From: Schmidtea polychroa
Lineage: Eukaryota
NCBI GenBank assembly: GCA_044892525.1
Contig: CM097885.1
Span: 101,804,001 to 101,868,000, forward strand
Reading direction: 5' to 3'
DNA length: 64,000 nucleotides
Made by a program: the position numbers and the translations under genes. How positions within the stretch are numbered: position 1 is the stretch's first letter; each line of letters opens with the position of its first letter. Positions 43,580 through 64,000 of the stretch are shown here, piece by piece. The notes under the pieces are model-generated. The model did no database searches, had not been told where the DNA came from, and worked only from the letters and a program-made list of their open reading frames with translations.

Positions 43580-46500
43580 TGTAAAACATTAAAATCAGTT
43601 TTTGCTTCCATAAAATTTATTTCAGTAAATATTAATATCAAATTATATCTTCTTTAATCTTTCTTATTTAAACAAATTTTCTACGAAGATATTTTTAATT
43701 AAAATATCTTCTTATATTTTTTTTAAATATTAATCTAAAATTTAATTTTTAAAATTTTCAATTTAAAAATTTCTTCATCATAAAACTTCCTCATATCTCC
43801 CTTCTTAAGAAATTTTTAAGTTTTTCCACATTTCTTTCGATCCTTTTTCCATCTTCATTTCTTAAGATGTATCGTCTGTCATGCACTTTCTCTATCACTT
43901 TGTACGGACCTTCATACCTGTCCTGGCCTTTGTGGCGTGTTTCTACTTTTACTAATACTTCTTCTCCTACATTGAATTTTCTCCTTGTTTGTTCTTCTAG
44001 TTCTTCCTTTATCGGTATTTCTTTGGACCCGTACCATTTTTCCCTGTTAATCTTTTTTCCAAAAACTATCTCTGTCGGGCTTTTCCCTGTCGTTTTTTGT
44101 TTGGTTGCATTTAAAGTGAATTCGACTTCTGGTAATATCTCTGCCCAATCCGTCTTCTTTCTATCCTGTAAAGTAGCATTTATCAAATCCCGTATTGTCC
44201 TGAATTGTCTTTCTATCTGACCGTTTGTTTGGTGATGGTATGGACTCGAAAAACATAATTTAATATCTAGCATCTTTGTGAATTCTCTCATCATTCCTGA
44301 TTCAAACGCCTTTCCGCAATCAACTCTTATCTCCTTTGGGCATCCAAATCTTAAAATCCACTTTTCTAAAATCGTTTTCTTTATTGTTTTTTCGTCTTGT
44401 TTTGTTATCGCTGTCAAGACTTGATACTTACTATACTGATCTATTATGCCCAATATATACTTCTTACGTCCTTTTGTTTCTGTCAACGGTCCACATATAT
44501 CCACGAATATAATTTCGAACATTTCCTTCGAATCTTGTTTTTTTTACTGGTTCTTTCGTTGTTATTGTTAAAGCCTTGGTTTTTTGACAAATCTCACAAC
44601 TTCGAATAATTTCCTGAATCTGACTCCACAGGTGTTTTCCAACATATCTATCTTTCATATAATCGGCAATCTTCTCGACTCCAGCATGACACAATAGTCT
44701 ATGTATTTCCTTTATTGTTTCTTGTAACTCATTTTCAGGTATCATCGTTTTCTTTCGTACTTCTTCTACCATTCCATGTTGGATGTTGCTTCTTCCCTCT
44801 TCTCTGATCGAGTCTAGTAATCTGTTTTTTTATCTTTCCTTTCTTAGCTTCTTCGTGGGCCATTTGACATTGAACACACGTGTCACATTTAGTTCTCGAC
44901 ACCATGTCTGCATTTTGGTGATTAATACCATTTCTGTATTCTACTCTTATATCTAAACTGCTCAAATAATTGATCCATGTTTGGAATTGTGAAGTAATCG
45001 GCTTCTTGGTTGTCATCATAAACGTTATTGCTTTGTGGTCTGTCCTGAGCGTGAATCTTCTTCCGTAGAGATAGTGCTTAAAATGAATGCAAAAATAATA
45101 TACCGCCAATAATTCCTTTCTTGTAATACAATATCCTTTCTCGTGGCTCGTCATCGAGTGTGATCCATACGCAATTACTCTTTCCTTTTCATCTTTATCT
45201 CTTTGTGAAAGTACTGCTCCAATGGTATCGAAACTAGCGTCGGTATCTAAAATGAACTCCTTTTTCAGATCCGGAAAACATAAGATTGGCGCCGTCGTGA
45301 GTGCTAATTTCAATCCCTCAAACACGCTATTCGTTCCTTCACTCCATTCTAATTTTTTGTTACTTGGTCCGCTACATAATTGTTCTAACATCCTTGCCTT
45401 CTTTGCATAATCACTGATGAATCTTCTATAATAATTGCAAATACCTAAAAAGCTTCGGAGTTTCTTTACGCAATTAGGCTTCCCAAAGTTCTGTATGGCC
45501 TGAATTTTAGATGGGTCTGTCTGTACTCCTTCCTTGCTGATTATGTGTCCTAAGAATCTGATTTCTTCCTTTATTATTTGGCATTTTTCTGGATTAATCC
45601 TTAGGCCTGCTTCCTCAATCGCCTTTAACACTTCTCCGAGTATTGTATAGTTTATCTCTTTACTGCTTGAATAAATCAAGATGTCGTCCAAATACACCAT
45701 TGCTCCCTTTATTTTGCCTAATACTTTTGTCATCATTTCTTGGAACTTACCTGGTGCTGCTGTAATTCCAAACGGCATTCTGTTGCGACAATATTGTCCG
45801 TTCTTTGTTGAGAAAGCTGTTTTCTCCTGTGATTCTTCTTCTAGTTCCACTTGGTAATATGCATTACCTAGATCGATTGAGCTGAAAAAGACGGATCCTC
45901 CTAACAAATCCAACATCTCGTCTATGTTTGGCATTGGAAATGCCTGCCTCTCTGTTACCGCGTTCAGCTGTCTAAAGTCCAAGCATAGTCTAATATCCTT
46001 TTTCTCTTTTTTCCATACACATATTAGCGGTGTATTCCATGGATAGTTACATTTCCGTATAATTCCATTTTCGTACAAATTTTGTATTGCTTCTTCAATC
46101 TTTGATTCCAAATTTAGTGGTTGGCGATATAGTTTTATGTTTATCACCATCTTGTGTTTTACCAAATGTGTGCGACCCACATCCCATTTATCTGCCATAA
46201 ACACGTTTCCACTGTTTGTTATAATTTCCTTTAATCTGCTATCTTCATTGATCTTTAACTGTTCCAACGCTCGTATCAATCGTTCTTCATCCTTTATTTT
46301 TCTGCCAAATTTGCGCTTCAATGTTACAAATATAGTTCTTGTCTTTTTCACTAGCCTCGATATCTTTAGTTTTTAACAGTCTAAATCCAAATGTTTCTTG
46401 TAATTCGATTCCTCCAATCACATCTGGTGTCACTTTCTCCGCCACAATGAATATAACTTCCTTCGAAACATTTCCAATGGTTACTTGCACCTTCGTTTTC

Positions 46501-46842
46501 CCTATTGTCTCGATCGTACTCTCTTTTGCACATCGTAACTTATCGTCACTTTTCGTCAATTGTTGTCCTCGTAGCTTGTTAAAACAGTTCACACTCATTA
46601 CATTGATTCTTGCACCAGTGACTAATAAACAGACGAAATTTTCCCCATTCATCCTTACTGTTATACTAGGCCTTCCTTGCATTTTCCCATGAAGCAAAAT
46701 ACCATAAATACGACAAGCATTAAAAGCAGGTTGGCGTCGGAAAATAAAAGATTTTTTCTTCATAAGAGACAGGTTGGAATTATGGCCAATTTTTATGTCG
46801 AAATTCGATTAAAAGGGCATACACCTGAAATGCTGGAAAGGT
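43580..46842 (-). mobile_element. pol: Gypsy LTR retrotransposon B: protease-RT-RNase H-integrase plus 3' LTR (43580-43793)
   Basis: LLVTGA (protease, D>V), FSSIDLGNAYYQ, YLDDIL, LDTDAS, TDHKAI, HxxxxH...CxxC, integrase DICGP...VDCG...QTNGQIER. The PPT AAGAAGGGAGA is adjacent to a 214-bp TG...CA LTR. Confidence 0.92.
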
Positions 46843-47438
46843 TGTTATGAATATAATAGCAGCATACACCCCTTGAACGACTTCACCGACGAAGGGTATT
46901 GGAACACAGTTCGACAATAAAACCGTTCGCCAGCGAAATCTTTCTCTGGGGCTAATTATAGTAAATAATATAAGCTGAATTAAATAATTCAGCTTAAATA
47001 CAAATGCAAATAAATGATGCCCATGAAATAAATAATTACATAATTATGTTAGCTTAACAAAACAACTAGATTCATGTTTTAATTTTTCAATAAAAGTTAA
47101 ACGAATAGATCTGAACGATTTAGGTAAGACGACCACGAGCAAAAATAAATTTCAGAGTCAAAGAAAATTTTTGTCACTGGTTGAATTAGTAATAAAGTAT
47201 TTATTAGGAAGATCCCTTTCGATGTTTCCAGGTTGAGGCTATAGGGTGATGATAAGTAAATGACTATCCATTTTGGCGGTAAATTGGTCATCGAACTTAC
47301 GACACGGAACACTATTACCATCAGAGGATAACTATTCGTTCGAACCACTGTTTTACGTCTTAGCGGATTGATGAGAAAGATGAAATTTTTAAAAGGGGAA
47401 AAGACCATTATCGTTAACCATCCTTATTTATTAACAGA

Positions 47439-47801
47439 ATGTCTCAAACAAGTGAACCCGACGAAGCGGAATACAGGCAGAGGATCACGCGGCTCCGGAC
47501 CCGGTACATCTGGTACCGGATTCATGATTGGAACCGGGGGTTGGACCTAGATAATTATGGTCCGGTCATCCGAAGTGGCCCCGAGCCCGATGCCCCGGCG
47601 TGGATGAAAGTAGAGCCGACCAACAATGTGTTGCGAGAAGCCCGCGATCGAGCGGCCGGCGAAGTAGACGAGTCCCAGAGGCGACTGAAGAGACTCGAGC
47701 TCCAGCTCAGAGCCGAAGCAGAGGGAGTAACCCTCGAAGAGCTAGAAGAGGCAGATGCTCCTCCACGAAAACGAGGGAGGCCCCGTAAGAATCCTGCCTA
47801 A
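47439..47801 (+). CDS. LTR-encoded 120-aa protein with coiled coil, acidic patch and C-terminal AT-hook
   Basis: Intact ATG-to-stop ORF, GC-rich, ending EELEEADAPPRKRGRPRKNPA. Confidence 0.65.
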   Translation: MSQTSEPDEAEYRQRITRLRTRYIWYRIHDWNRGLDLDNYGPVIRSGPEPDAPAWMKVEPTNNVLREARDRAAGEVDESQRRLKRLELQLRAEAEGVTLEELEEADAPPRKRGRPRKNPA

Positions 47802-48112
47802 GCCGCCAGCAGTGGCAACTGGAATAACACTATCTAACAAATTTAATCCAATGATGTGGTGTTTGCGTTTGACTTCATTAGTAGCTAGTATAACAAATTA
47901 CAATTTTTGTTCATTAACCTTTTGACAACATCGTTCATCATGTATCTTCGTAGTATAATAAATTGTTTTTCTGTTATTACATTTGGACTTTATGGCTTAT
48001 GGAGTGTATTCATGATTGAGGTGACCCTTCCCATCCTTCTTCTATTAATTTTATGCAATTAATCGAATCACCTTTACGCACATGGAAGCGAGCGATGAAA
48101 TTTTATTATTGT

Positions 48113-48479
48113 TTTCCTTCAGTGTACTCGAAAATTACTCGAAAACCTACGCAAGGACCGCGAACAAGCCCAGCAACAAGCCGAAGACCTCCGAAGTCCG
48201 GTCGAGAAGCTTAAAGTCAAGTGCCGAGAGCTCGAAGGTACTTGGTTCAGTCCGGCTGAGATGAAGAAACGAACGACACACATCTCGCGACTCCAGACCC
48301 AGGCGAAGCAGGACCAACTCGAAATCCGAGCACTGAAGTTGCAAGTGTGCACGCTCGAGAGTAGATTGAACGAAAGGTTCATCCAGGACACTCTCCGAGA
48401 ACAGATTCGTCCACTTCCCGTGGAGCTGGCCAAGATATACCCCCGGCCCAGACGAGCAAGCCGAAACGTAAACGGTTAG
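48113..48479 (+). CDS. LTR-encoded coiled-coil ORF (frame open from ~48113; possible splice acceptor ending 48123)
   Basis: FLQCTRKLLENLRKDREQAQQQAEDLRSPVEKLKVKCRELE...MKKRTTHISRLQTQAKQDQLEIRALKLQVCTLESRL; preceded by ttgttttccttcag. Confidence 0.5.
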
Positions 48480-48962
48480 GGCGAAATACGCGAGAGAAAT
48501 TGAAAAGGGCCTGGCTGACCGAGCAGGAAAAATCGAAAGAGCCTGCAGCCACTCCACGATCCTGAGGAATGTTTGAGAGTGCGACCCCTCCTGGGTAAAA
48601 CCGACATTGTGATATTGTAGTGTTTAAATAAATAATTTCATTGTCTGATGGGTATGTGATTAAACTTGTGATTGTCCCGAGCAGGACGGTCGACAGAAAA
48701 GAGTTTGGGAAAACAATCTCGATAAGGGACCGAAATAAATCGGACACATGCCTTCTATCGGCCGTCCGTGAACCCTTGGAGTGCTCGACAATTATAGTGC
48801 TCTTAACGCGCTCACTTTTTGCGAGTACTCCACCCCTTGGTACAGCACCAACGTTGATTACTCAACGGGTACCAAGTGGAAAATAATGTTGCATGCTGGG
48901 TTACGCTGGTAACAGCACTAAAGAGCAAAATATTTGGTCATCAGTAACCCACCATACAAATT

Positions 48963-48980
48963 TGGGGGCTCAGCCGGGAT
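48963..48980 (+). promoter_or_regulatory. Primer binding site, tRNA-Pro
   Basis: TGGGGGCTCAGCCGGGAT matches 16/18 positions of the canonical tRNA-Pro PBS TGGGGGCTCGTCCGGGAT. Confidence 0.88.
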
Positions 48981-49673
48981 TGTAAAAATTTAATTGGTGA
49001 AAGAACCCGAGAATAGATATAATGGGGAGAGAGTAAAAGCTGATATAAAGTGATATGCATTCAAGAACGAGCAAATTGCTTTCCCAAACACTTAAACTTA
49101 GTACATGGATATGTGAATATGATGGAATATATGTGAAATGTTTAAATGAGTAATGGGAGTTTTAAAGTGTGTCAATAGATGAATGTATTGAAAGTGAGCA
49201 TGAGAATACTGTACGAATAGCGTAGTAATAGAATGAAATGATGATAAACGAAAATTAAAACTAAAACAAAATATAGTAAAGTTTTTAAATATTAACGATT
49301 AATAAAATGTAAATATACGAAATAATAAAAATTTAAAAATAGGGGAAAAGGGGGGATAGCACGCTAATAAAAATAAAACGAATGAACAGCGTAATTAAAC
49401 TTAATTAGAAAACGTGTAAATTATGGCGATAATGAATGGGATATGGGTTATATATAATGAAACGATTATAATAAAATCACAAGATCATGAATGAAATTTG
49501 CGCGTGATAGAACATAAAACAGAGGAAGACGGGGTTGCTAAGAGTGATAAGTAGAGGTTTATGGAAGCACTAATAAAATAAGGTATTCATGATATTAGAG
49601 GGAAAACGATAAAAGGGGAAAACGACGCGGAGTATTAATAAAAAGAGCATTTTAATTAATAAGTCTTAATTAG

Positions 49674-50156
49674 ATGGAATCAACCGACTACATTACAAAG
49701 AGACTCGAAAAATTCGTAAATTTAAAACGCAATTCGTTACAACGGCTAAATCGCAAAGCGGACCAGTTGGTGAAAATCCAAGACGAGATTAGCTTGAATC
49801 CAAGACCGCAAGCTTAGGAAATATGTGTAATGATGAAAATAGCAACGCCTAATGCAGAATTGACCACTAAAAGAGTCTACCAAATTCAAAATTTACGATT
49901 AGATAATGCCAAATTTAACATCAAATGGCAGGAGATAATGATAAAAATGGAAACAATCGAAGAAGAAATTAAAGAAGCAATCGAACATCAAGTTAAAGAT
50001 TTTAGAAAATGCTTCATATGCAGAATCAATGAAATACGAGTAATGACGATCCCATGTGGTCATTTATGTTACTGCGAGAATTGCGCAATGAAAATTAAAC
50101 GATGCAACGTATGCGATACGAACGTTAGAGAGAAAATTGTAATATACCTCCCGTAA
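49674..50156 (+). pseudogene. Coiled-coil + IAP-type C3HC4 RING E3 ligase ORF in the retroelement leader (frameshift near 49820)
   Basis: CFICRINEIRVMTIPCGHLCYCENCAMKIKRCNVCDTNVREKIVIYLP aligns to the XIAP/cIAP RING including the terminal hydrophobic tail. An upstream frame MESTDYITKRLEKF... starts at 49674. Confidence 0.85.
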
Positions 50157-50894
50157 GGAGATGTTGTCAAATAAATTTCTTTTGAATGAATATAAAATAA
50201 GATAATTATTAAATTATATTAAAAATCCATTATAGCAACCGAAAGGTATAAAACATAAGATGAACATAGACATATAAAGGACACATAATACGTTAAATAA
50301 ATAGACAAGCAACACAGCAATTAGAAATATTAAAATCAAAATTGAATGCAGGACTGATCATAGTCGTATGAATGAGCTGATCGATAAGATCAGTACGATT
50401 GTTATTTCCAATTTTCATTTCTTCCTGTTTTATTATTTTGGCATAGAGAGATACAATAATGAGGGGATGACAAGTGGATCGTCCTTACGACACTTGCCCG
50501 GATGGGGAAATCCTGATCACCCTGATGAGAGAATGTAGTAGGATCCATCTCAAATGTTGGGGAGTTTCTGTCGAGTGACTGATCACCACTTGTGGTAAAT
50601 GAACCAACGCGATTATTATATTTTTTTGTCTGGGAGACTGGGATTGACTAAAAGGGTGAATAAAAATAGAAAAATAAAATAAAAATTGAAAACGCGCGCT
50701 AAACGTTAAAAATTTAATCCGAGAGCAGCTGCGGATTTGAAGAAACCATTTTTGGACTTCAAATCGAATGAAGAGTAATTATTTTTTCCCTAGCGAGTGA
50801 TGAGGCACCCGAGTACAGCGGCTAACCACCGGACTGTAGTGTCCAGGATATTATCAGCCAAGGGACTGATGATGCTGGATCACCCAATACAAAA

Positions 50895-51860
50895 ACCTGG
50901 ATACCACACCGAGTATTGGGCGCATTTTTTTGTGAGTTGCTAGCGGGATTTGATACAAAAACACGGAAGGGTAGCGATCGAGAGAGACCCAGTTACCTAC
51001 ACCGAGTATTAAGGAGCCCAGTGAAACGGTTGTGAGATGCGAGTCAACCGGTAAAGGACTCGTACTCAATAGGCAACCAAGATTGGACTAGTTGTGAGGC
51101 GGAGGACCGAAAGTCAACTGCATATCCAATTTCCTTTTATTTTCACTAGTCGGGAGATCTGATTCATCACTTTTGAGAATCACGATCGAGGCGATTAGGC
51201 ATTTCCGTGTTTTTTAAATCCTGACAGATAGGATGTTTTTCTTCGTGATTATTGCTAACAGGGGTCGGTACAAAACCCGGATGCCCACACCGAGTACCGA
51301 TAGGCCCAGTGAAACGGCGATGAGATTAGAGTTACCGGTATTAGACTCTTTTCAATAAGCGGCCAAGAATTGAGCCAGTTGTGAGGCCTCAGCAGATTAG
51401 GAATTTGAGTAGGAGGAGCCTTGAATTTTTAATTAGTCCGAAAGTCAACTGTCAACTCAATTTAATCGCGGTAGGGACGATAGTAGGTGTAAAAACCGAA
51501 GGCTTCTGGGGGTTGAAGAAACCTCATTTAGGGCATTTGAAACCGGTCAGGGACCGAAGACTGCGAATACGGCGTAATGGTGTAAAAGCCCAGGCGTCTA
51601 GGAGTCGTAAAAGACTTCAAATTATGATTAAACCGGCCGGAAGCCGATGCCGACGCGGAGGTCTAACAAACCAAAGCGTTGATGGGTAATAGTAGATTAT
51701 ATGGCGTAACGGTGTAAAAGCCCAGGCGTCTAGGAGTCGTAAGACTTCATGAGATTAAAATGAGTTGATTAAACTGGCCAGAGAGCCGATGGTAATTGAG
51801 TGAAATGATTTAAATGAAATAAGAGAGTTGATTAAACCGGCCAGGGAGCCGATGGTAAAT
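50895..51860 (+). repeat. Imperfect direct repeats in the 5' leader
   Basis: cacaccgagta... at ~50903, ~50999 and ~51287 (the last two extend ~130 bp); ggcgtaa.ggtgtaaaagcccaggcgtctaggagtcgtaa at ~51571 and ~51703; gattaaac.ggcc...gagccgatg three times. Confidence 0.85.
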
Positions 51861-52617
51861 GAATGTAGACGCAGAGATCGCGCGAACCAAAGCATCGATG
51901 ATTAACTATGAAATTGATTAAATTGGAATAGATTAAGTGCGACAAATATGTAATGAGTAAAGGAAAATTATGATGAAGCGCCGGCGCAAGAGAAAATGAA
52001 ACCAGTTTTTGCATGGGGAAAAGCGAACGAATAGATAGTAGTTGAATTATTGAATTTTATTTATTAATGATACGTTTATTTTGATATTTATGTGATTGAT
52101 ATTATATTTATATGATGATTATAAAAGGGATAGATAATTGATACGACTATATAGATAATTGGTACGAGTTATAGATAATTTAAAATCGACTTAAAATCAA
52201 AATGGGGTGAATAACGAGAAGTGTAGGAAAGCTAGAAAATTTGAAGCGAAGGAGCAGTAAAATAAAGGGGAAATGGAAAGTAAATGAAGGGTTTAATAAA
52301 GAGAATTTATGATATGTACTAGAAGTGTTAATTATTTTAGAATAAAGCAAACAATTCAGAAAGAAAATCAAAGAAATCAAGGAAGCAATAGAAATCAAGG
52401 GATATAAAGAAATCAATTAAAAGCGAAGAATCAAAGAAATTAATAAAACCAAATCCAAGAAGAATTAGAGAATCGTAAAGATTAAAGCGAGACAATAATT
52501 AGAAAACATCAAGCTCGATCGACGAAGTAGAAAATTTATCAAAGGATAGCAAAAGGAGGAAAAATTGATAGTATAGCTAGCCGAACCAGGCGAAAAAGTA
52601 AAGGAAACCTCAGTTTA

Positions 52618-55600
52618 TTGGAAAAGGAAGAGATAGAAAAAGCCAAGACCAACAGACAACTACACAGGAAACCGGCATCAGTGGAAAGATTATTTGAATC
52701 AAACAGTTTAACTAACGAATTTGAGAACAGCGACGATTTTAAACGAACCGAATTAGATCCAATAAGCGACGCCGAATCAACTGACGAAGAGGAAAATATA
52801 TCCGAGACAACAGAGATAACCGTACTGTGCCAAGAGATAATGTCGGACGGAAACACGAATGAACAAAGGGTAACGGACCCACCAGGAACAAGTAATGTTC
52901 ACGTCAACATTGGAGAATTCAGAGAGAAATTTCGAGGAGAGCCATTCGATGGAAATATAAACCAGCTGGAAACGTTTATAAAAGAATTCGAAATATGCAT
53001 TACGATATGTCACTGGCCAGACATAGTCATACGAGAGCGAATACCCCTATATCTAAAGGGAAGCGCCCAAGATGTATATTTAGAGGCAAAATGCGATGCA
53101 ACAAAGTTGAGAACATGGAAAGAGATCAAAGAGTTTTTAATAAAAACCTTCGGTACCGAAAAGGAAGGAAATCGGAAAATGTTGGACTTTCTACATCGAA
53201 AGCAGAAATATAACGAATCCAATGCACTGTACGCATGTGAAATGAAACGATTAGCAAGAGAAGCCTTCGATTCAAATCAACCAGTTCCGGAAGATAAGAT
53301 AATAGCCGTATTCGTAGATGGTATGAAGCGAGAGGATATACGAGCAACCTTGGGATGTCGAGCACCAGAGATGCCGGAAGAAGCACTAAAAATGGCTAAC
53401 AAATGTGAAACCTACTTAACACCAATACAAGTAGCAGCTATGACAGCAGCCCCAGCAGCTCCAGCAACAACAGCAACAACTACAAACAACCAAGTCAATA
53501 ATGCAAATCCAGTAATGAATCAATTCATCCCAGGATCGCAACAGTTGTTCAAAACCCCACAAACAAGAAACCAAGACAATAGAGGTAATATTCAAAATTT
53601 TACTAATAATTTCAGGAACAACGACATTAACAATCGAACGTGCAATATATGCCAACGATCAGGGCATTGGAGCAATGAATGTTATAGAGCAAGGATGTGT
53701 CAAAAGTGTGGGAGAAGAGGACACACGGAAAACGTCTGTAGCGGACCCATGAAGTCTATTGGCAGAGGAGGAACCAGAACCTGCTACAATTGTAATCAGC
53801 CTGGACACATGGCAAGGGAATGCAAGATGAGAGTGAAACCAAATCAACCAGGATCAAACAATCCAATTCAGAACACACAAATCAACCTCATGCAGGAAAT
53901 CGAACAATTAAAAGATATGATCCAACGAATACCGGTGAATAATCAACAACAACGAATCAACATGATGCAGAGCACCGAGGAAATCCGGAAGCAACCAAGC
54001 AGGCAACAACAAGATCAACAACGAATCGAATGGCAAAGATTACAAAACGAAGAAGCCAGAGAAATTCAAGAAAGATGGAAACAACGGGACGCGAATCCCG
54101 GAAGAATAAATATGATGAGATTAACAAATAAAGAGGAACCGCACACTGCGGAGCAGTGTGTTAACAACGAAGGGAGTGGTCCGATAATAAACGAGGAGAT
54201 AAAAACGACAAAAGAAAATGAGATTGATCAACGGACAGAATTAAGCAGTGAAGAGAAAATACAATTGATTAAAGAATTTACCCAAGAGGAGAAAGAAAGG
54301 AGACAAAAAAGAGATGAGAGTAAAGATGAATCAAAAAGTAATGAAATAGTTACAAAAATTCGAATTCAGAGGGTACTACTACAAAAAATCGAAGACAGAA
54401 TCAAAAACGAAAACCCTACATTAACTAAGGAACAAATAAAAGAAAAAGTGAAAGAGCATTGGTTCAGGAAAAATGAGTGGTTCGAAAAGAAAGAACCACA
54501 TACCAAAGCTAAAATAAACATGCTGAGACAAATGCGGAGTGACCAGACGGATCAGGAAGACGAGAAAAGTGAGGTGAGTAGCCTGGGAGGTGAATTATTT
54601 CAGTCAAGTGAGGAAAATAACGAACCAAAAACACCTCCAAACAGTGAAACACCTCAAAGTAGTGATGAGAGTGAAAATGATGACATGAAATCAATGATAG
54701 AAAAAGATGATGAGGAGATATTTGAGGAAATTTTCGACACAGTAACAGAAATAGAGCGAAATGAGAGCTACATCAACGAGTTAATATACAGAAAATGCTT
54801 AAAACTTATAACTCAAGTATACCAGTGTGAAGGAGGTATAATAACGGCAGCATGGAAAGAATTAACAACAAAATATAAAGAGAAACTAAAGGAAGCAGAC
54901 CCAGATCAATATCAAGTAAGTATTCAACACCCTGAGATTCAGATACAGACTATTGAATTAAAAGGAACAAATACTGATGAACTGTACAACTGGGTACAGG
55001 AAAAAATGGGAACGAGCCATAAAAATAAACAATTATATGTCGATGGTTACAAAGTTAAAATGGGCATACATTTGGTAGATGCGATGATATGGCCAAACGA
55101 AACGAACATCTTAACCTTAGAGAAAACCAGAGACGACGAATCAGTGGCAGAAATGTTCAAGAAAATCCAACAAGTGTTTAACAATGAAGTGGAACCAGAA
55201 TTGGAAAAGATCGAACGGAAAATAATGAAAGAAAATCAAATAATCTTAGTCAAACAAGCTATCGATCAGGCAAGGAAATATATTAATAGACTAAGAGAAA
55301 GATGGCCGCAACTAATGAAACAATTTGTCAAAGACGTACGAGACACGGAAATTATGAGATTCGAAGATAAACGAGCGACAGAATTGATATCAAAATACGG
55401 AGAATACGAGAGAACCAAATGTGAACAAGAAACGATAAAAATAAAGGTGAAATTGCCAAATGAAGAGAAACAAATAATAGAAGTTAATCCCGATTGCCAA
55501 GTTGACGAGTTAGTGCAAATCATAGATCAAGAGATCATCCAAAAAGCTCGAGAAAATAGTGAGGATGGAATGATCGAAGATGTGATAATAATGTACAACC

Positions 55601-55995
55601 GGCATATGTTAGAAAGAGGAGACCGAACTGTAATTTACGAACTAGGAATCTGGGAAGATGGAACCGTCATCAATATAATCGCGATGGATGAACCATCTGG
55701 TGGGCACAAAAACGCCACCAAAACCGATCAACAAATCAAGAGATTCCAATGGGGAATGAGAGCCAAGATGGACCGAATAATAGATATTTATAACCATTGG
55801 CTAAAAGATGATAAACTAAAACTAGCAGCATTCAATGATAAAGATTGCAAACTGATACCATGGAAAAAGGTGTGGATTGAAAGTGAAGCTCGATGGGATT
55901 GGGAACAGCAAAAGTTGGAACCAAATTGGATAGATAATATACCAGAAGAGATTGCAGCAGTATGGGTAAGAGAGAAACCGATCGATACTTACTAG
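52618..55995 (+). CDS. gag: Gag with three CCHC zinc knuckles (53641-53823), coiled-coil/acidic linker and two ubiquitin-like domains (~54910-55125, ~55430-55680)
   Basis: Capsid-type PFDG..QLETFIKEFE...W...IPLYLKGSAQDVY; knuckles CNICQRSGHWSNEC, CQKCGRRGHTENVC and CYNCNQPGHMAREC. The ORF ends at an in-frame TAG followed by DILPQE. Confidence 0.92.
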   Translation: MEKEEIEKAKTNRQLHRKPASVERLFESNSLTNEFENSDDFKRTELDPISDAESTDEEENISETTEITVLCQEIMSDGNTNEQRVTDPPGTSNVHVNIGEFREKFRGEPFDGNINQLETFIKEFEICITICHWPDIVIRERIPLYLKGSAQDVYLEAKCDATKLRTWKEIKEFLIKTFGTEKEGNRKMLDFLHRKQKYNESNALYACEMKRLAREAFDSNQPVPEDKIIAVFVDGMKREDIRATLGCRAPEMPEEALKMANKCETYLTPIQVAAMTAAPAAPATTATTTNNQVNNANPVMNQFIPGSQQLFKTPQTRNQDNRGNIQNFTNNFRNNDINNRTCNICQRSGHWSNECYRARMCQKCGRRGHTENVCSGPMKSIGRGGTRTCYNCNQPGHMARECKMRVKPNQPGSNNPIQNTQINLMQEIEQLKDMIQRIPVNNQQQRINMMQSTEEIRKQPSRQQQDQQRIEWQRLQNEEAREIQERWKQRDANPGRINMMRLTNKEEPHTAEQCVNNEGSGPIINEEIKTTKENEIDQRTELSSEEKIQLIKEFTQEEKERRQKRDESKDESKSNEIVTKIRIQRVLLQKIEDRIKNENPTLTKEQIKEKVKEHWFRKNEWFEKKEPHTKAKINMLRQMRSDQTDQEDEKSEVSSLGGELFQSSEENNEPKTPPNSETPQSSDESENDDMKSMIEKDDEEIFEEIFDTVTEIERNESYINELIYRKCLKLITQVYQCEGGIITAAWKELTTKYKEKLKEADPDQYQVSIQHPEIQIQTIELKGTNTDELYNWVQEKMGTSHKNKQLYVDGYKVKMGIHLVDAMIWPNETNILTLEKTRDDESVAEMFKKIQQVFNNEVEPELEKIERKIMKENQIILVKQAIDQARKYINRLRERWPQLMKQFVKDVRDTEIMRFEDKRATELISKYGEYERTKCEQETIKIKVKLPNEEKQIIEVNPDCQVDELVQIIDQEIIQKARENSEDGMIEDVIIMYNRHMLERGDRTVIYELGIWEDGTVINIIAMDEPSGGHKNATKTDQQIKRFQWGMRAKMDRIIDIYNHWLKDDKLKLAAFNDKDCKLIPWKKVWIESEARWDWEQQKLEPNWIDNIPEEIAAVWVREKPIDTY

Positions 55996-56001
55996 GATAT
56001 A

Positions 56002-56520
56002 TTGCCACAAGAATTCCAAAATGATTTACAACCAGAAGAAGATGAAGAGATACGAGAACCGGTAAGGTTAGCGCCATTCACGTGGAAAATTGAGAATTGG
56101 ATGGAAAAGATAAAATCAGCAAAGGAAGAGAAAATCACACGATTAGTAAGTCCACCGTTCTACTCAGGATTAGGTGAATACAAGATGAAATTGCGAATAT
56201 ACCCGAACGGAGACGAGGTAGGAAAAGGAAGTTACGTATCAGCATTCTTCATCATCTGCAAAGGGAACTATGACGACAAGGTACCATGGCCGTTTAGCAG
56301 AAAAGTAACGATAGCAATCGAACACTGAAAGATAGCCTTAACGTACATAAAGAAACAATGAAACCAGATCCAAGGAGCACCTGCTATCAACGACCGACGA
56401 CATTAGAAAATATCGCTTCTGGGACGTCTAAATTAATACGTCTAAGTTACATTGAGAATGATTAGTCAATATTCGTGAAAGACAATGCCATCCAGATCAG
56501 AGTGGAGGTGGAAACAGAAA
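56002..56520 (+). pseudogene. TRAF-C (MATH) domain within the polyprotein (frameshift ~56326, in-frame stop 56463-56465)
   Basis: FTWKIENW...SPPFYSG..EYKMKLRIYPNGD..GKGSYVSAFFII.KG.YDD..PWPF..KVT, then KPDPRSTCYQRPT..ENIASG...FVKDNAIQIRVEV: the classic TRAF-C motifs. Confidence 0.92.
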
Positions 56521-57480
56521 AAGTAATGAACCAACGACTGAACATACCGGAAAACCAACCGAGAATCTGTATGATGAGGAAAAGAGTGCCTGATTCAGGG
56601 CATCTACCAATAGACGCCGACGCAGATGAGGAGGAAGCAGCAACATTGCTAGAAGCACAAAAGTGTAAGGAGTTGATGGAGATATTACAAAACGGTGCGA
56701 AAAATCGTCGACGAGCGGTAGTAGAACTAGCAAAATGGATAGCCGAATCATGCAAAAGAATTCAAAACCTTCGAAAAATCGTTAAAGCGATTGAGGAATA
56801 TCGACGGGTATACGTATGGTACCCTGAGCAATTCGGTGAAATCATCCGGAAATGGAAACAACAAGAGTGGGCCGAAAACTCACCCGAGAAATATCAACTA
56901 AAAATATTCTTGCCAGATTTCGAACCAATGGAAAAGGAATTCTACACGACAGCCAAAGTCAGGGAAGTTAAAAAGAGAATACTTTATGAACTTCCGTTCC
57001 ATTTACAACACGAGGGGCGATCATTAGACGACGATGTTGAAATTGGTGTGACACCACTCCAAGGAGAAATTGTGAACAGACTAACGGTGAGTAAAATTGC
57101 AGGTAGAGAATTAAGGAGAAGAGAGATAAAGCAAAAATCATCCACCCAACCAGGAAGTTTGGACACACCAGAAGTCCCAAATGCGGTTAGTGAAGTGACG
57201 ATCGAAACAACGGGAGAAGACGAAATACTAGACGAATTACAAGAGAGAGTAGAAGCAGGCGAGATTATGAGAGCATCACAATCAGGAGATCTATTTATGC
57301 GCGCAAAGACAACCAGTAGAAACGACAGAAGCCGAGACGGATTTAGATAATGTAGAAAGAGGTGACAATAAAGAAGTAACTACAACCGACGAATGGAGCA
57401 ACTGGAGAGTAGATCCAGGAGCGACCACGTCAAAAGATATAACTTACAATCCGCCAAAACGGAAAGAAACCGGAACAGCT
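56475..57480 (+). pseudogene. Polyprotein segment with helical region, third ubiquitin-like domain (~56890-57090) and acidic linker (frameshift ~57300)
   Basis: KYQLKIFLPDFEPMEKEFYTTAKVREVKKRIL...LQHEGRSLDDDVEIG fits a beta-grasp pattern. An alternative frame from ~57305 runs into ATG 57481. Confidence 0.65.
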
Positions 57481-60075
57481 ATGGATCGACGAACAAGAGG
57501 AAGACCAAAAACAGATAAAGCAGAGGCAGAACCAAAATCCAAAATTCAGGCGCAAATGGAACAGGTAAAAACTAAAATGGATAAACTAAGTGCATTAGTA
57601 AAACAAGTCAAAGTGAAGACAAGCGTCCAAGAACAAGAAACACGATGGATAAACGACTTATTAGCTAACATGTTAGCGTTAGCAAATCCAGATGTGAAAA
57701 GAGTAATGAGGAAGGATAATATCCCAACCGAAGCCAAACAATTATGGGCGGTATTGAAACCGATAATAATGAAAATCATGGATAATAAAATTCGATTAAC
57801 GTTAAAAGATCCCGTGGAACTCAGATTAATTGTGGAACATCTATTAAGCAGATCAGAGGACCAAAATCGATATTTAGTGGGATTAGCATATTTAGTATAT
57901 AACGTTATTGGTCAATATAAAAAACGAATGCCAAATTACAACGCAACTGGTTACGAATTCACAGCAACGGAAGTAATCAAACGATCAATAGAACCATATA
58001 TACTTGAACAAGGGGGATGGAGAAACTTCATCGAATCAACTGGGAAGAAAGATCAAACGGAAATGATGCAAGCAAGGTTACGCGACTTGCTAACTGAATT
58101 CGAAGGGACAATCAATATGAACGATCCAAGAGCAATCCGAAAAGGAATGAATGCCATAATAACCACAATATTGATATGGATGATGTGTATCAAAGGAACA
58201 GAGTCATTTGCAGTGTACGACTGCGACAACATAAAAATCCATGAGAAATATTCATTAAAGGATACAGAAGACTGTAAAGCGGCAAACCCAAGAAAATCAC
58301 AAAGAGTCATGGCATCAGTCTCGTATAATGTATATCAAGAAGCAGATTTCATCAAAACCATGGTCCAAGAATGTACGGTAACTAGAAAGATATTCGCGCA
58401 TCACTGCGGTTCATCCTCCCACTCAACAATCATAGAACCGGGATTAGAATCGACAGTAATATTACTATCAAGAGAGGAATGCGAGGAAGGATTCCGGTCG
58501 GGGAGAATCCACTTAAGACAAGGGATTGAAATTGCTGCAGAACCAGGGAAAATAAAAACGACTCGCGTGTATACGGCAGGCAGAATAACCAAAGGAGATG
58601 GAACATGTGAGACAGGAACATACACCCTGAACGGACAACTGGTTAGTGGAGTGGTCGTAATAGAAAGCTACGAAGCTAAATTAGAAAGGTATCAAGGTTA
58701 TTTCGACCCTGACACGCAAGCAATGAAGAAATACCCAAGCTGTCTCGCATCAGATCGATCATGTTCAACCGGAATGTCAACTCTGGTATACCATGCAGAT
58801 CAGAAAGTATGTCGACTAATGTTACTCAAGACAGCAATATTCGAAGAAATCCAAGGGAAAGTGTACAGTGAACCAAAAGGAGAAGCAGAAAAACGAGCGA
58901 TGGAAGAGTTGAGAGCAAGGAAAGGATTCAGAGAAGACGTAATAACCTCGAAATTGGAATCGGAAGTGACACCCAAGGCGATAATCTCCAAAGACGATGG
59001 AATAGGAATGAGGTTCATAAAGAACAAAGTGGTGAGTAAATGCGATGAGATGGTGATCAGCACCAATTATAAAGGGATCTACTTGTCACGGAGAACCCTA
59101 GCAAATGCAGTCGGAAGACTAAGCGAAAAGGATGTCAAATTATATTTATATGCTAATAACAAAATGGATTTCTTATATCACAGAGGATTAACATCTACGG
59201 AAAAAGTCTATCATGATCTGTTAAGAAACGATTGCCTGCTCAACAAAGAAATATTGAGAACAAAATTAGCAATGGCAATTACAAACCCAGATAACGCAAT
59301 TCCGTTACTACCGCTGCAAGAAGGATATTTCGGACGAATCGTGGGCGAAGTAATGTACACCTACCAATGCAAAAAGATAATTGCAAGATTGCCGGAAAAC
59401 CCTATTATACCAAGGAATAAATGTGCAAACGAACTCGAAATCATCCACGAAGGCAAACCCAGATTTGTGCAAGCAGTCACCAGGATAATGAACCCGGTAG
59501 AGTTTCAACCAAACCTGTTTAATTGTAGTAATGCATATGGACCAATGTATGAAAAAGAGGATGGACAATGGGTGCAATTTCCAAGTAAAACAATCGTAAT
59601 AGCACCCAAGAAATTTGGATTGTCGGAACTAACAACAGAATTAGAATTCAAGCCGATAGACGTATCCCAGAGTGGATTATATACACCAAAAGATCTTGAA
59701 TCAGCAAGAGCCCACATGTTATTTCCAGCACAGAGACAAGCGATCTTGTCAAATATAGTGACTATTTCTGGAAGAAATAATTATGGGGAGAGCCCGAATT
59801 ACGAGCTATTATTATCACCAAGTCACTATCAACAAGCAACAGCAAATATGATGAAGGCTATGTGGGGTCGATTTTTGGTATTTGGCCAAATGATGGCAGG
59901 AATACTCGGAATTATTCTGATAATACAAATAGTCAGAGTGATACTAACTCAGATGTTAGCATGTTTTGACATCTATAAACGCGAGAGAAAAGTAAATTGG
60001 AAACTTACAATTGGATTCTTACCGTTCTTAGCGAAAACAATGGTGTTGCATGGACACTCAAAGGATATTTATTGA
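57481..60075 (+). CDS. env: Bcl-2-like domain (~57640-58040) + internal signal sequence (~58150-58206) + chuvirus/Monjiviricetes-type fusion glycoprotein with TM (~59870-59960)
   Basis: BH1-like QNRYLVGLAYL and BH2-like YILEQGGWRNFIE; glycoprotein motifs AVYDC..YSL..C, QECT....HHCG..SH, GDGTC, ANNKMDFL, NDCLLN, GYFGRIVGEVMYTYQC and CANEL...TRI. Confidence 0.88.
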   Translation: MDRRTRGRPKTDKAEAEPKSKIQAQMEQVKTKMDKLSALVKQVKVKTSVQEQETRWINDLLANMLALANPDVKRVMRKDNIPTEAKQLWAVLKPIIMKIMDNKIRLTLKDPVELRLIVEHLLSRSEDQNRYLVGLAYLVYNVIGQYKKRMPNYNATGYEFTATEVIKRSIEPYILEQGGWRNFIESTGKKDQTEMMQARLRDLLTEFEGTINMNDPRAIRKGMNAIITTILIWMMCIKGTESFAVYDCDNIKIHEKYSLKDTEDCKAANPRKSQRVMASVSYNVYQEADFIKTMVQECTVTRKIFAHHCGSSSHSTIIEPGLESTVILLSREECEEGFRSGRIHLRQGIEIAAEPGKIKTTRVYTAGRITKGDGTCETGTYTLNGQLVSGVVVIESYEAKLERYQGYFDPDTQAMKKYPSCLASDRSCSTGMSTLVYHADQKVCRLMLLKTAIFEEIQGKVYSEPKGEAEKRAMEELRARKGFREDVITSKLESEVTPKAIISKDDGIGMRFIKNKVVSKCDEMVISTNYKGIYLSRRTLANAVGRLSEKDVKLYLYANNKMDFLYHRGLTSTEKVYHDLLRNDCLLNKEILRTKLAMAITNPDNAIPLLPLQEGYFGRIVGEVMYTYQCKKIIARLPENPIIPRNKCANELEIIHEGKPRFVQAVTRIMNPVEFQPNLFNCSNAYGPMYEKEDGQWVQFPSKTIVIAPKKFGLSELTTELEFKPIDVSQSGLYTPKDLESARAHMLFPAQRQAILSNIVTISGRNNYGESPNYELLLSPSHYQQATANMMKAMWGRFLVFGQMMAGILGIILIIQIVRVILTQMLACFDIYKRERKVNWKLTIGFLPFLAKTMVLHGHSKDIY

Positions 60076-60084
60076 ATAAAAAGA

Positions 60085-61041
60085 TTGTTGAAAATATTAA
60101 CGCAAATGAAAGGGACAGACGAAGAAGTCGGACGTAAGTTCAAAGTGATAATGAGATTAGAAGCAGAAAGAACTCAAGAGAAAGCGAAAAGAACCGGGAA
60201 GTGGAAAAAGTGGATGAACCTCAGACGAAACGATGACAGCGACAACGACAATGATGATTTCGACGACGATGATAATAACCAAGGAGGAGCAATGCTGATA
60301 AACAAAAATACAGCCACTTGGGAAAACGAAAAAATGAAACCATGGGGATCACCATATTTACAGGCATCAACTAATGGACCAATGCGACGACCAGGAACAA
60401 TGAGAGAACGGATAAGAATGGGAACCGGAAGATTACCCATACCAAACATTTATCCAACAGCTTATGAACCAAATTGGGCAGCAATGGATCCAACGATGAT
60501 CAAACAGGCTAAAAGTGTAGAACAAGAAGTTGAGACACGAACGATTGCGGTATTGCAGACACCAGCCGGACCCTCATTAAACATCACGGTTGAAGTAAAC
60601 GGAATAGAGATGGATGCAATGATCGATACCGGAGCAAACTTTTCGGCAATAAATATGAATATGCTACCAGGTAGACTATGGCCATGCATTGAAGAGACAA
60701 CCATGGATGTAATAACATGCAGCAAACAATCCATAGCGACAGTAGGAAGAGTATGGTCAACGATTGAATATAGAAGGGTTAAAGTTACAACGTACCTCGC
60801 AGTCATTAGACAGCTAAGCGTATCATGTATAATTGGAACAGATGTAATGCCGGAATTGTTGAAAGAAATTGTGATTGATTTGAGTTCCATGAAATTAAAA
60901 GATAAAACGGGACAGATATGCACAATGAGAACAGAAGTGAGATGTTCCGAAAAAATGATAATACCAGCACGTACCCAGACCATATGTTATGTCAAAGTCG
61001 ATAATGAAGCCAAAGGAAATATGATATGTATATTTTTGTAG
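60085..61041 (+). CDS. pro: Linker + retropepsin aspartic protease (DTG at 60625), in frame with env across a single TGA
   Basis: VEVNGIEMDAMIDTGANFSAI...SCIIGTDVM, followed by the Gypsy-type post-protease spacer IIPARTQTIC. Confidence 0.9.
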   Translation: MLKILTQMKGTDEEVGRKFKVIMRLEAERTQEKAKRTGKWKKWMNLRRNDDSDNDNDDFDDDDNNQGGAMLINKNTATWENEKMKPWGSPYLQASTNGPMRRPGTMRERIRMGTGRLPIPNIYPTAYEPNWAAMDPTMIKQAKSVEQEVETRTIAVLQTPAGPSLNITVEVNGIEMDAMIDTGANFSAINMNMLPGRLWPCIEETTMDVITCSKQSIATVGRVWSTIEYRRVKVTTYLAVIRQLSVSCIIGTDVMPELLKEIVIDLSSMKLKDKTGQICTMRTEVRCSEKMIIPARTQTICYVKVDNEAKGNMICIFL

Positions 61042-61043
61042 AT

Positions 61044-61802
61044 ATGAATTATTTAAAAGAAAGAGAATCAACGAGTAACGAAGAAAGAAGGTCAAACGAC
61101 CAACCCGAACAAAGCCAGAATACGATACCAATCAAACAAGAACCGATGAAATATTATAGTAATAAATGGAGAGTCAGCAAGAAGTTGTTCAGAACAAAAA
61201 TTGCAAATCAAAATGAGAGATTACGAGATTGAGACAGCAAATTGTTCAATCAAGGCGATTAATAAACACTGTCAAGCAAGAAATTTTGAGGGAAATAAAT
61301 TAATCGAAACGAAAAGAGACAGAAAATAAAAACCTGAGACAAGAGATAGTAGAGTTGAGAGCTCAGGCAGTAATCGAAGACTATTGGAAATCAGAAACAA
61401 GGAAGTTGAAATATCGATCAAGTTTATATCGAACAGTTAGAAGCACAATATGCTTATGCAAAAACGAGAATGCGAGAAAGTAAAAAAGTCGAGAAGAGAA
61501 ATGCAAAACTCAAGGAAGAGATCAAGGAACAAAGAGAGAAAACAGAAAAACAATGGAAGTTGAAGGAAAATTACCAGAGAATTTTAAATCAAAAACGACG
61601 AAGCATGCAGACACTGCAGACGACAATGACCATCAAGCAGAGAAAATGGAAAAGTAAAGAGAAGCAATTACAAGAAATACCAGAATTAAAGAAACAGTTG
61701 GTAGCAATGCAACTCGAAATAATAAGAATGAACGAGTTGAGTAAAAGACGAGCACCTGAACCTCCCGTAAAATTAAGGGATGAGGTCGGTGACTCCCAAT
61801 AA
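61044..61802 (+). pseudogene. Disrupted coiled-coil accessory ORF
   Basis: K/E/Q-rich heptad-like segments in the fragments 61026..61232 and 61470..61802. Confidence 0.55.
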
Positions 61803-61861
61803 ATGAGACAAAATAACTGTGTAAATAAATTGTAAATAAAGCCAAGTAATTATTGTTAAAG

Positions 61862-62710
61862 ATGAGAAGCCTAATCGTGGTGATGATTATAATGACAATG
61901 CCAAGAATCCTGCAAGCTGAAGAATCAATGATCAGATGCCAGAAAGAATACCCATACCGAAGAGAAGATAGCACCTGTAGTAGCTTTTAATCGATCTGCG
62001 AAAAACCCAATGAGGAATGCGAACAAATCAACTCGCAATGTTCGCAATGTCCACAAACAACAGAAAATTCGATGGAAGTGCAAATGGCTCAGACAATAAA
62101 AACAAGCTTGGAACAAGAAATGAAAGTTATCAGAACCCAGATAGCAACATTTGCCAAACAATGTCAAAGCCAGAAATCAAAGAAAGAATCCCAAACAGAT
62201 CCAGCCGCAATGAGAATGATAAAAACATTAGAGGAAATAAAACAACAAGTAATAACAGCCGCCGATGGACGTTCAAGCAATTGCGGAATGGTAGTGAAAT
62301 CTTTAGAGGAAATGAAAGGAAAAATAACTTCCATCATCAAAGAGGAACCCAGCATTAAAAAGGAAGTGACGAAAAACTTGAAAGAAATAACAAGAGAAAT
62401 CTTAACTGCCATGAACAGGAATCCGATGAACTCCGAAAAGATGATTAAAACCCTTGAAGAAATTAAAAAGAAAGTTGTCAGCTCGGAAGAAAACAAACTC
62501 GACAAACCCGAAAAGTCGGAAATTGTAGATATAACCCAAGTGAGAGAAACTATGAACAAACTCAAAGTAATAGAACCAAGAGAGTCTGAACCCCTCACAA
62601 AATCGATCCTATTAGCGGCGAGCCTAATGGTAAATATCACCATACTGAGCCTGATTGCACTCAAACCCAATTTCAGCAAAGAAATAAACAAAACCTTCAA
62701 ACTAAAATAA
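61862..62710 (+). pseudogene. Accessory type-I membrane-protein-like ORF: signal peptide, Cys-rich head, repeated coiled-coil stalk, C-terminal hydrophobic anchor (one in-frame TAA)
   Basis: MRSLIVVMIIMTMPRILQA-EESMIRCQKEYPYRREDSTCSSF*SICEKPNEECEQINSQCSQC is in frame with 62072..62710, which contains SILLAASLMVNITILSLIAL. Confidence 0.65.
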
Positions 62711-64000
62711 CAATCACGAAGTATTCGTATCCCAATAGAAGAACCACTAGTCCAAACAACGAGCCAACCAAGATATTTCAAATCTTCTCCAAACATTGAA
62801 ACCAGAGCCGTCATCGAGACGAGATCCCGAACAACAGAATTCTACTAATGTGACATCACGACAGTATAAACATTTCGTGACATTATAAAACATTACCAAA
62901 CAATTGTGATTTCAAAGACTGAGACTGATTATGATTAATACCATTAATTCTTGAGCATGATAATTTAATGTGGATCGACCTCGGTCGTTCTTTTTCTTCA
63001 TCTTTCAACCCATCTGTAAAATGTAGTGTAATAGTAACATTTTTATGTATGTGGGTATTGAGGTCACGACCCTGTAGCTCGTAGACCCAATTTGCATGTA
63101 GGCACTTGTAATATAGTGCAAGTATTCTGAAAAATAATCTTATTCATCTTCTGATTTAAATTGCGGGTCGCAATTTTATGGGCCCCCGAGTGTTTTATGT
63201 TGGGCTAGAACTGACTTCTAGACCCAAACTATAATTGTGACTGGAATGCGTAGGTACATAACATGAAAAAAGCAAAAAGTATAGTTAAATATTAAAAATA
63301 CACCAAATAAACAATATTAATTAAAAGAGAAAACAACAAAAAATATAAACACAGAAATTAAATAAAATTATACAAAAGCAAAAAGTTATGCAAAATCTAA
63401 CTCAAAAATAACCAAATAAACATAGAATTACAAAAAACCAAACTCGAATAACTTAAAAAATGGTAAAAACAGTAAAAAATTCCAGAAAAACCCAGAACAT
63501 TCCATAAAAATGGCGACGATCATCACAAAAGCTACCTTGAACAATAAAATATTAGAAAAATAACTAAATTAGTAATAAAAATAAAAATTCGTAAAAAGAA
63601 ATTCAGAAAAACGTCAATTAAATAAAAACTAAATTAAAAGTAATATGGAATGTTCTGGAACCGTTCCAAATCCATCATGGACGTAGAATTAATGAAAAAT
63701 TATTAAAAATTTAAAATTTAAAAATAAAAACAAAAATTATGGCATAAAAATTGCCATTAAAAATATCAAAATCGCGAAATAGAAAATTCTGGAATAAAAG
63801 GAATTCGAGTTTGTTTTAATGCATCAATACATACACATGTACAAAATAGGTATATATACTGACGCATTTCAGTCACAAAATCAATCACTTTATGCCAAAT
63901 TCATTTTTTTGATTTTGTGAAAACTCTTTGGGAAAAATCTTAATAGTAAGGAGTACTTTATTTACATTATAATATGTTTTTATAATATGTTTTATATGAT

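Follow-up and report, generated by a model that had tools for sequence, protein, structure and literature searches.

A window of 64,000 nucleotides of the planarian Schmidtea polychroa (assembly GCA_044892525.1, CM097885.1, positions 101,804,001-101,868,000 of the forward strand) contains, in its segment 49,674-61,041, a long terminal repeat (LTR) retroelement which an earlier note, made from the sequence alone, described as carrying a combined set of apoptosis and ubiquitin-signalling domains. All coordinates below are positions within this window. The element is Burro1-like, a giant of the Ty3/gypsy group that carries an env gene, and the window copy is dead: it is internally deleted, decayed and devoid of polymerase. 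Its coding features are the following.

49,674-50,156, + strand: leader open reading frame (ORF) of 160 codons, with a coiled-coil-like part and a C-terminal RING of the inhibitor of apoptosis (IAP) type at 50,004-50,129; own stop at 49,815
53,044-53,328, + strand: Retrotrans_gag capsid region (Pfam PF03732, E 1.5e-7)
53,635-53,830, + strand: three CCHC zinc knuckles (three CX2CX4HX4C motifs; PF00098, E 7.5e-11, two scored stretches)
54,910-55,120, + strand: candidate ubiquitin-like domain Ubl1 (sliding hhalign, among the best windows of 158, probability 57%, E 1e-4)
55,430-55,704, + strand: candidate ubiquitin-like domain Ubl2, then Gly-Gly at 55,699-55,704 (four sub-threshold beta-grasp Pfam matches, E 0.007-0.07; hhalign 3%)
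56,077-56,520, + strand: TRAF-C/MATH domain with two breaks, the frameshift near 56,326 and the stop at 56,463
56,892-57,100, + strand: candidate ubiquitin-like domain Ubl3 (hhalign 34%, E 4e-4), at the position of the published Ubi2/SUMO-like motif
57,620-58,040, + strand: Bcl-2-fold domain (from profile and model), BH2 GGW retained, BH1 NWGR altered
58,147-58,212, + strand: predicted Env signal peptide (hydrophobic stretch, by hydropathy), 45 residues past BH2
58,213-59,946, + strand: Env, a gB-type fusion glycoprotein (PF24664, Monjiviricetes fusion protein, E 1.7e-69), with a C-terminal membrane helix at 59,896-59,946 by hydropathy
60,583-60,858, + strand: aspartyl protease (PF00077, E 7.9e-6), downstream of the stop at 60,073

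The ancestral frame has the order Gag-Ubl-Ubl-MATH-Ubl-Bcl-2-Env-protease and is broken five times in the window copy, by in-frame stops at 55,993 (TAG), 56,463 (TAG), and 60,073 (TGA), and by frameshifts near 56,326 and near 57,300, all located where the earlier note had placed them. A genome search with positions 55,000-58,000 as query returned 530 candidates, 40 of which were scored, namely the window copy and 39 others with 92-95% identity. One partial match was excluded, and the 38 other copies covering the whole query, taken as 10-kb stretches, form our comparison set. Across the five breaks the frame is continuous in 37/38, 35/38, 34/38, 34/38, and 30/33 covering copies. Thus, the joined frame is the state of the family, and the breaks reflect decay of the window copy. 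Two of the 38 copies are stop-free from Gag past the protease, and seven of the 150 MATH matches listed lie in stop-free frames of 4,785-4,791 codons. The 5' LTR of the window copy is joined to a truncated Gypsy element in a repeat-rich region, and a chimeric assembly or nested insertions might in principle imitate one frame. This is refuted by the 38 other copies, in which the MATH region keeps the same linear order and each junction is open in most cases, so that we give this possibility a negligible probability; the chimeric assembly and the displacement of domains to other frames that the earlier note had named as fatal to its claim were not found. The end of the frame given in that note (61,041) is not a natural one, as an internal deletion lies there.

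The deletion removed about 11 kb from the window copy, including reverse transcriptase (RT), RNase H (RH), integrase (IN), ankyrin, and accessory genes, and we read this segment in 16 other copies. One full-length copy, followed stretch by stretch, measures about 34 kb in total and about 25.5 kb internally, the window copy being about 11 kb shorter inside. Full-length members have a leader RING gene, a frame of about 4,790 codons (Gag-Ubl-Ubl-MATH-Ubl-Bcl-2-Env-protease-RT-RNase H-integrase-ankyrin-tail), and TRAF and IAP genes behind pol. The env gene is in frame between Bcl-2 and protease, and in the other copies this gB-type env precedes a Ty3/gypsy pol. Behind pol come a 153-codon gene (no Pfam match), a 487-codon TRAF gene, a 392-codon IAP gene, and a long frame without Pfam match. 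The TRAF gene has a RING-like start, TRAF zinc fingers, and MATH, and is open in seven of the 13 copies covered end to end; the IAP gene (BIR, E 9.4e-16; RING, E 3.2e-12) is open in eight of 14. This larger kit is lost in the window copy and was not visible to the author of the earlier note. At the end of the main frame (copy L042), two further hydrophobic helices around a Cys-containing region follow integrase and ankyrin, a predicted second surface protein.

Most of this layout has been published, and the topology is not new. Burro1 (GYPSM1) of Schmidtea mediterranea has a 4,873-residue ORF with MATH_TRAF_C, a Ubi2/SUMO-like motif between MATH and BCL-2, a BCL2-like domain, BIR, and ankyrin, its env stands between BCL2 and protease without a change of frame, and interference with apoptosis and ubiquitination was proposed for it in 2019 (PMC6431247). 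The S. polychroa family resembles it in size (more than 30 kb, about 25 kb internal, an ORF of about 4,800 codons against the published 4,873), in a Gag with three CCHC, and in MATH, a Ubl between MATH and BCL2, BCL2, an in-frame env before the protease, RT-RH-IN, ankyrin, and BIR (PMC6431247). RT, RH, IN, ankyrin, and BIR were found in other copies, the window copy retaining the protease only. The relationship to Burro suggested by the earlier note is thus borne out, including MATH and BCL2-like domains in Burro itself. The same note sought novelty in the RING, the Ubl triplet, and the topology: the topology and one Ubl had already been described, whereas the leader RING is absent from the published text. 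That text names one Ubl where we count three, and contains no IAP-type leader RING, full TRAF, or BIR-RING IAP (its figure may show them); conversely, the published dUTPase-like region was not detected here, and the window copy is broken and without pol (PMC6431247). The gap of about 220 residues between protease and RT gave no dUTPase match by Pfam or by phmmer against PDB, the published call having used HHpred.

A second description concerns six S. mediterranea elements with a gB-type Env, among which Smed_errantivirus_6 is labelled GAG-ENV-POL (PMC13524379). Its gene order is the same, and its Env ectodomain is identical at about 171 of 260 residues (about 66%, ungapped, counted by eye), other Smed errantivirus families being mostly 27-38% alike in Env. 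With 34% of residues differing, an orthologous family of a related planarian is indicated rather than the same element. The main text of that paper makes no mention of Burro, Bcl, ubiquitin, or TRAF (PMC13524379). Among the literature found, PMC6431247 alone describes Burro domains, and the leader RING gene, the complete TRAF and IAP genes, selection on the cargo, and the arrangement of Bcl-2 and Env signal were not found there or elsewhere in the literature searched, although the original Burro papers and figures may show RING, TRAF, and IAP.

The individual domains were examined in turn. The leader RING matches PF13920 (E 2.4e-11), and cIAP2, cIAP1, and XIAP fill the nine top places among 14 solved relatives; its gene is open in 14 of the 19 covering copies. 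The IAP-type RING reported in the leader therefore stands, despite the stop in the window copy at 49,815. As this ORF has no BIR, it is an IAP-type RING and not an IAP, while the accessory gene behind pol combines BIR and C-terminal RING as IAP proteins do. The TRAF-C assignment is clear, the half of the MATH domain in the window copy scoring E 8.9e-20 and the domain of an unbroken copy E 1.3e-28. The Bcl-2 fold predicted by the earlier note is confirmed at the level of profile and model. A profile of seven retroelement sequences reached Bcl-xL and Bcl-2 with E values of 4.5e-5 to 4e-4 and host-type Bcl-2 loci at 94.9%. The model (predicted local distance difference test, pLDDT, 59) was built from an alignment without cellular Bcl-2; among 48,161 chains, the first 35 rows of the structure search are all Bcl-2-family or viral Bcl-2-fold proteins, with a best Z of 12.4 (root-mean-square deviation 3.4, 139 residues) and the first clearly unrelated title at Z 5.3. 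Foldseek with the same model is concordant (best E 1e-3). As Z values below 13 are common among helical bundles, according to the tool's warning, the Bcl-2 case rests on the uniform ranking and on the sequence profile. The BH2 motif PYIxxxGGW is found in 36 of the 38 copies. The Bcl-2 segment gave no match in a single-sequence PDB search, no usable match in the ESM Atlas, and no Bcl-2 match in Pfam.

The three Ubl domains are the weakest of the three assignments (MATH, Bcl-2, Ubl), with support ranging from moderate for Ubl1 to weak for Ubl2. When 158 overlapping windows were aligned by hhalign with a profile of host ubiquitin and of Ubls from other families, the 16 best all fell inside the segments that the earlier note had named, which favors its claim of three domains, if not at full strength. 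With an independent profile, Ubl3 ranks first among 994 window frames (7.5 bits, beaten by one of 400 shuffles). The Gly-Gly after Ubl2 is found in 37 of the 38 copies, and none is present behind Ubl1 and Ubl3. Pfam gave no ubiquitin match for Ubl1 or Ubl3 of the window, and Ubl1 and Ubl2 were not matched by hmmsearch with a profile of eight Ubl segments from other families. Single-sequence AlphaFold modelling of Ubl1-Ubl2 reached pLDDT 37, and no Ubl gave a confident model. In protein databases, no relative of Ubl1-Ubl2 was found among 360 candidates, and one was found for Ubl3-Bcl-2. Contigs of four sequencing runs that may be RNA, compared with positions 46,600-63,100, gave no usable signal for expression or splicing. 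Contigs of the runs X1 and X2 contain a deep joint skipping Ubl2 (55,237-56,098), and an abundant Ubl2-less variant may thus exist.

All cargo is under purifying selection, as the per-domain comparison across copies proposed in the earlier note makes clear. Counts were made on variants common to at least three copies, in 36 copies plus the window copy for the polyprotein (two near-duplicates removed), 20 sequences for the leader RING, and 14-15 for the accessory TRAF and IAP genes. Synonymous to non-synonymous ratios of shared variants are 4:1 for Ubl1, 14:3 for Ubl2, 18:2 for Ubl3, 28:6 for MATH, 20:4 for Bcl-2, 16:8 for the leader RING, 54:23 for the accessory TRAF, and 27:11 for the IAP. 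The ratio of non-synonymous to synonymous rates (dN/dS, omega) is 0.00-0.26 for polyprotein parts, 0.13 for the leader RING, 0.07-0.22 for the accessory TRAF, and 0.00-0.28 for the IAP, compared with 0.6-1.1 in the non-coding leader and 1.6-5.2 in shifted frames. The domains could nevertheless be captured passengers, retained merely through their in-frame position: linker omega is as low as domain omega, and Ubl and Bcl-2 have moved a long way in sequence from their cellular counterparts. Yet an in-frame position forbids stops and frameshifts, not amino-acid changes, and constraint extends to the leader RING, TRAF, and IAP, which are genes of their own. This explanation is thus largely refuted, and we consider it very improbable.

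The family has also moved recently, as the two LTRs within other copies are 0-0.8% apart in nine of 11 measurable cases (12 tried), the two higher values including paralogous pieces. In a search for BIR (309 candidates), about 116 of the 150 matches listed, counted by eye, lie in frames of 392-393 codons, and 24 of 25 fetched BIR loci match the element IAP at 89-97%, although some of these loci are on small contigs and may be assembly duplicates. A search of protein databases gave two mollusc IAPs as relatives of the element IAP.

The termini of the window copy and the deletion junction complete this picture.

46,684-48,958, + strand: 5' LTR remnant, its 5' part gone and joined to a truncated neighbouring Gypsy pol; 3' end ...TACA
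47,439-47,801, + strand: small Arg-rich ORF in the LTR, the related frame being open in 19/20 upstream stretches
48,099-48,479, + strand: small coiled-coil-like ORF in the LTR, the related frame being open in 20/20 upstream stretches
48,963-48,980, + strand: primer-binding site, complementary to the 3' end of host tRNA-Pro(TGG) genes
61,003-61,027, no strand: internal-deletion junction, about 11 kb lost; 25 bases match both flanks
61,028-62,850, + strand: degraded pieces of the two final accessory ORFs on the 3' side (a coiled-coil-like protein and a predicted membrane protein)
63,198-64,000, + strand: start of the 3' LTR (TGTTGGG...), which continues past the window; the homologous base starts the 5' LTRs of other copies

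Paired LTRs and a tRNA primer site are those of an LTR retroelement; no purine run (polypurine tract) is evident upstream of 63,198, and with its 5' end the window copy has lost the place where a target-site duplication would be read. Its 5' LTR remnant and 3' LTR differ by 20 substitutions over 1,616 sites. The tRNA-Pro(TGG) genes form long tandem arrays with a 475-base spacing, their 3'-end pattern occurring 2,164 times in the genome. For the Arg-rich LTR ORF, dN is 0.08-0.79 against a dS of 0.48-3.0 or saturated; both LTR ORFs show dN far under dS, and they are only 39-87% identical to those of other copies, so that the LTR is diverging far more rapidly than the internal sequence. Homology to other copies stops at 61,027 and restarts about 11 kb downstream in those copies. 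Only the window copy spans this junction among the 40 matches scored of 601 candidates, and an amplified non-autonomous subfamily of the deleted form was consequently rejected. Upstream, positions 41,429-46,808 hold two decayed ordinary Gypsy-type elements on opposite strands; the Burro LTR remnant starts at the point where the minus-strand element is interrupted in its protease.

Relatives in the genome provide an indication of how the kit was assembled. Genome searches with Bcl-2 and Env led to two further families with Gag-CCHC-Ubl-Bcl-2-Env-protease-RT in one frame, containing one and two Ubls. These sister families are shorter (frames of about 3,050 and 3,334 codons), with an RT identity of 49-51% to the Burro1-like family, and tblastn gave no MATH, TRAF, IAP, or RING match in their own orientation in the stretches read. 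Similarly, the metagenome contig L160 (61-4266) encodes Gag-CCHC-Ubl-Bcl-2, a TGA, and then a gB-type Env in the same frame. Ubl and Bcl-2, common to the three families and L160, thus form the ancient core, to which the Burro1-like family seems to have added MATH, RING, TRAF, and IAP. In all four lineages Bcl-2 stands directly ahead of the Env signal peptide, the hydrophobic stretch before Env being 25-53 residues past BH2.

The origin of the MATH domains was addressed with a tree of the 30 best host-type MATH loci, in which a clade of 22 (support 100/99) leaves out both element MATHs; one and two captures are both compatible with this tree (approximately unbiased test, p-AU 0.36). An expansion of planarian TRAF genes has been published (PMC6109357). 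Its derivation from Burro is not supported, both element MATHs being outside the main host TRAF clade. The host-type matches L189-L192 and L194, with uninterrupted frames of 454-473 codons, are the closest host relatives of the element MATHs (34-45% identity). Apart from retroelements, the Maverick/Polinton-like repeats L113-L120 (Pox_A32-type ATPase, integrase-like frame) have their own Bcl-2 gene, and L117 also an IAP-type RING, so that comparable cargo is found on a second type of mobile element.

What the cargo does may be considered in the light of its cellular counterparts. Cellular cIAP/XIAP, TRAF2/3/5, and Bcl-2 provide likenesses for the IAP-type RING, the BIR-RING IAP, the TRAF with RING, zinc fingers, coiled coil, and MATH, and the Bcl-2 fold. 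Unlike in cellular and viral IAP, TRAF, and Bcl-2 proteins, these components lie together on a retroelement, partly within a Gag polyprotein, BH1 is altered, and they are known here from sequence and models. Baculoviruses carry IAPs. Poxvirus Bcl-2 folds are the counterpart in large DNA viruses (PMC2494871). We consider it probable that the Bcl-2, TRAF, IAP-RING, and Ubl cargo keeps particle-making somatic cells from dying or signalling. Judging from hydropathy and from viral polyproteins in general, the polyprotein would thread the ER (endoplasmic reticulum) membrane, Gag to Bcl-2 being cytosolic, Env luminal, and Pol cytosolic again, so that the Env signal peptide may double as a tail anchor of the Bcl-2 domain. 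The IAP would act as a ubiquitin ligase and the TRAF as an adaptor, and the lone MATH and lone RING might be decoys or partners of host TRAF and IAP. By analogy with the known biology of IAP, TRAF, and Bcl-2 proteins, the cargo would damp death and stress signalling in the producer cell. A differentiated cell would thus survive heavy output of Env and particles, and the particles could get to stem or germ cells, much as the errantiviruses of Drosophila start out from follicle cells.

Two published observations favor protection of a somatic producer cell over its rivals. When smedwi-2 is knocked down in S. mediterranea, BURRO1 RNA goes up in gut and epidermal cells that are differentiated and alive, transposon expression in neoblasts being largely unchanged (PMC8532177), and errantiviruses of Drosophila move out of the soma into the germline (PMC13524379). 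The version put forward in the earlier note, in which the kit ensures survival of the infected neoblast or germ cell, is accordingly left without support and seems quite improbable. Inheritance does require insertions in neoblasts or germ cells, young copies exist, and transposon-expressing neoblasts are seen upon knock-down of three PIWI genes (PMC8532177); but the single smedwi-2 knock-down raises BURRO1 in differentiated tissue, as just described, and the retained env argues for a producer cell differing from the target.

Several observations weigh against protection of producer cells. BURRO1 RNA interference (RNAi) did not improve the smedwi-2 phenotype (PMC8532177). In the alignment to host-type Bcl-2 loci, the Arg alone of the BH1 motif NWGR is retained, and Bcl-2 folds may act on NF-kB rather than on apoptosis, as in poxvirus A52 and B14 (PMC2494871). 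Linkers are constrained like the cargo domains (omega 0.01-0.20), so that selection shows that the polyprotein is made, not the specific function of each domain. BIR and RING of the IAP contain few variants, selection on the BIR being based on 2:2 shared variants alone. Finally, the sister families are abundant without MATH, TRAF, IAP, or RING matches in the stretches read, and this part of the kit is thus dispensable for such elements.

Some of these points fit another explanation, in which the cargo serves particle making, the Ubls being processing or budding signals and the Bcl-2 fold a membrane-anchored scaffold or an NF-kB decoy like A52 and B14. Gly-Gly marks the point behind which host deubiquitinases cleave, ubiquitin attached to Gag brings in ESCRT (endosomal sorting complexes required for transport), and pestiviruses offer a parallel. 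The nearly invariant Gly-Gly after Ubl2, the altered BH1, and the presence of Ubl and Bcl-2 in a lineage-wide core beside Gag and Env are all consistent with it, as is another multi-copy repeat family (L158, L159), which has two near-canonical ubiquitins in long frames. In this repeat, the stretch after the ubiquitins resembles a BEL/Pao Gag, and the piece ahead of them is proteasome-alpha-like. However, Ubl1 and Ubl3 have no Gly-Gly, the Bcl-2 model is closer to BH3-binding Bcl-2 proteins (Z 10-12) than to A52, N1, A46, and B14 (Z 6.5-8.8), and the complete IAP and TRAF genes are left unexplained. We therefore hold a role in particle making to be unlikely, and retain the protection of somatic producer cells as the probable function.

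The window copy itself matters little, since both the family and the idea have been published; the added value is that the proposal of 2019 becomes testable. Counts of planarian IAP, TRAF, and Bcl-2 genes, as well as RNAi reagents directed at them, can be confounded by element-borne copies. It is conceivable, albeit somewhat doubtful, that a functional TRAF-IAP ubiquitin ligase, complete in itself, is encoded by Burro1-like elements along with an ER-anchored Bcl-2 whose tail anchor is the Env signal. As over 100 IAP genes are open in one genome, looser PIWI control would then switch on a retroelement-borne survival programme able to alter cell death and NF-kB/JNK signalling in planarian tissue. 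If active, such an element would be a retroelement equipped with a host-control toolkit otherwise known from large DNA viruses.

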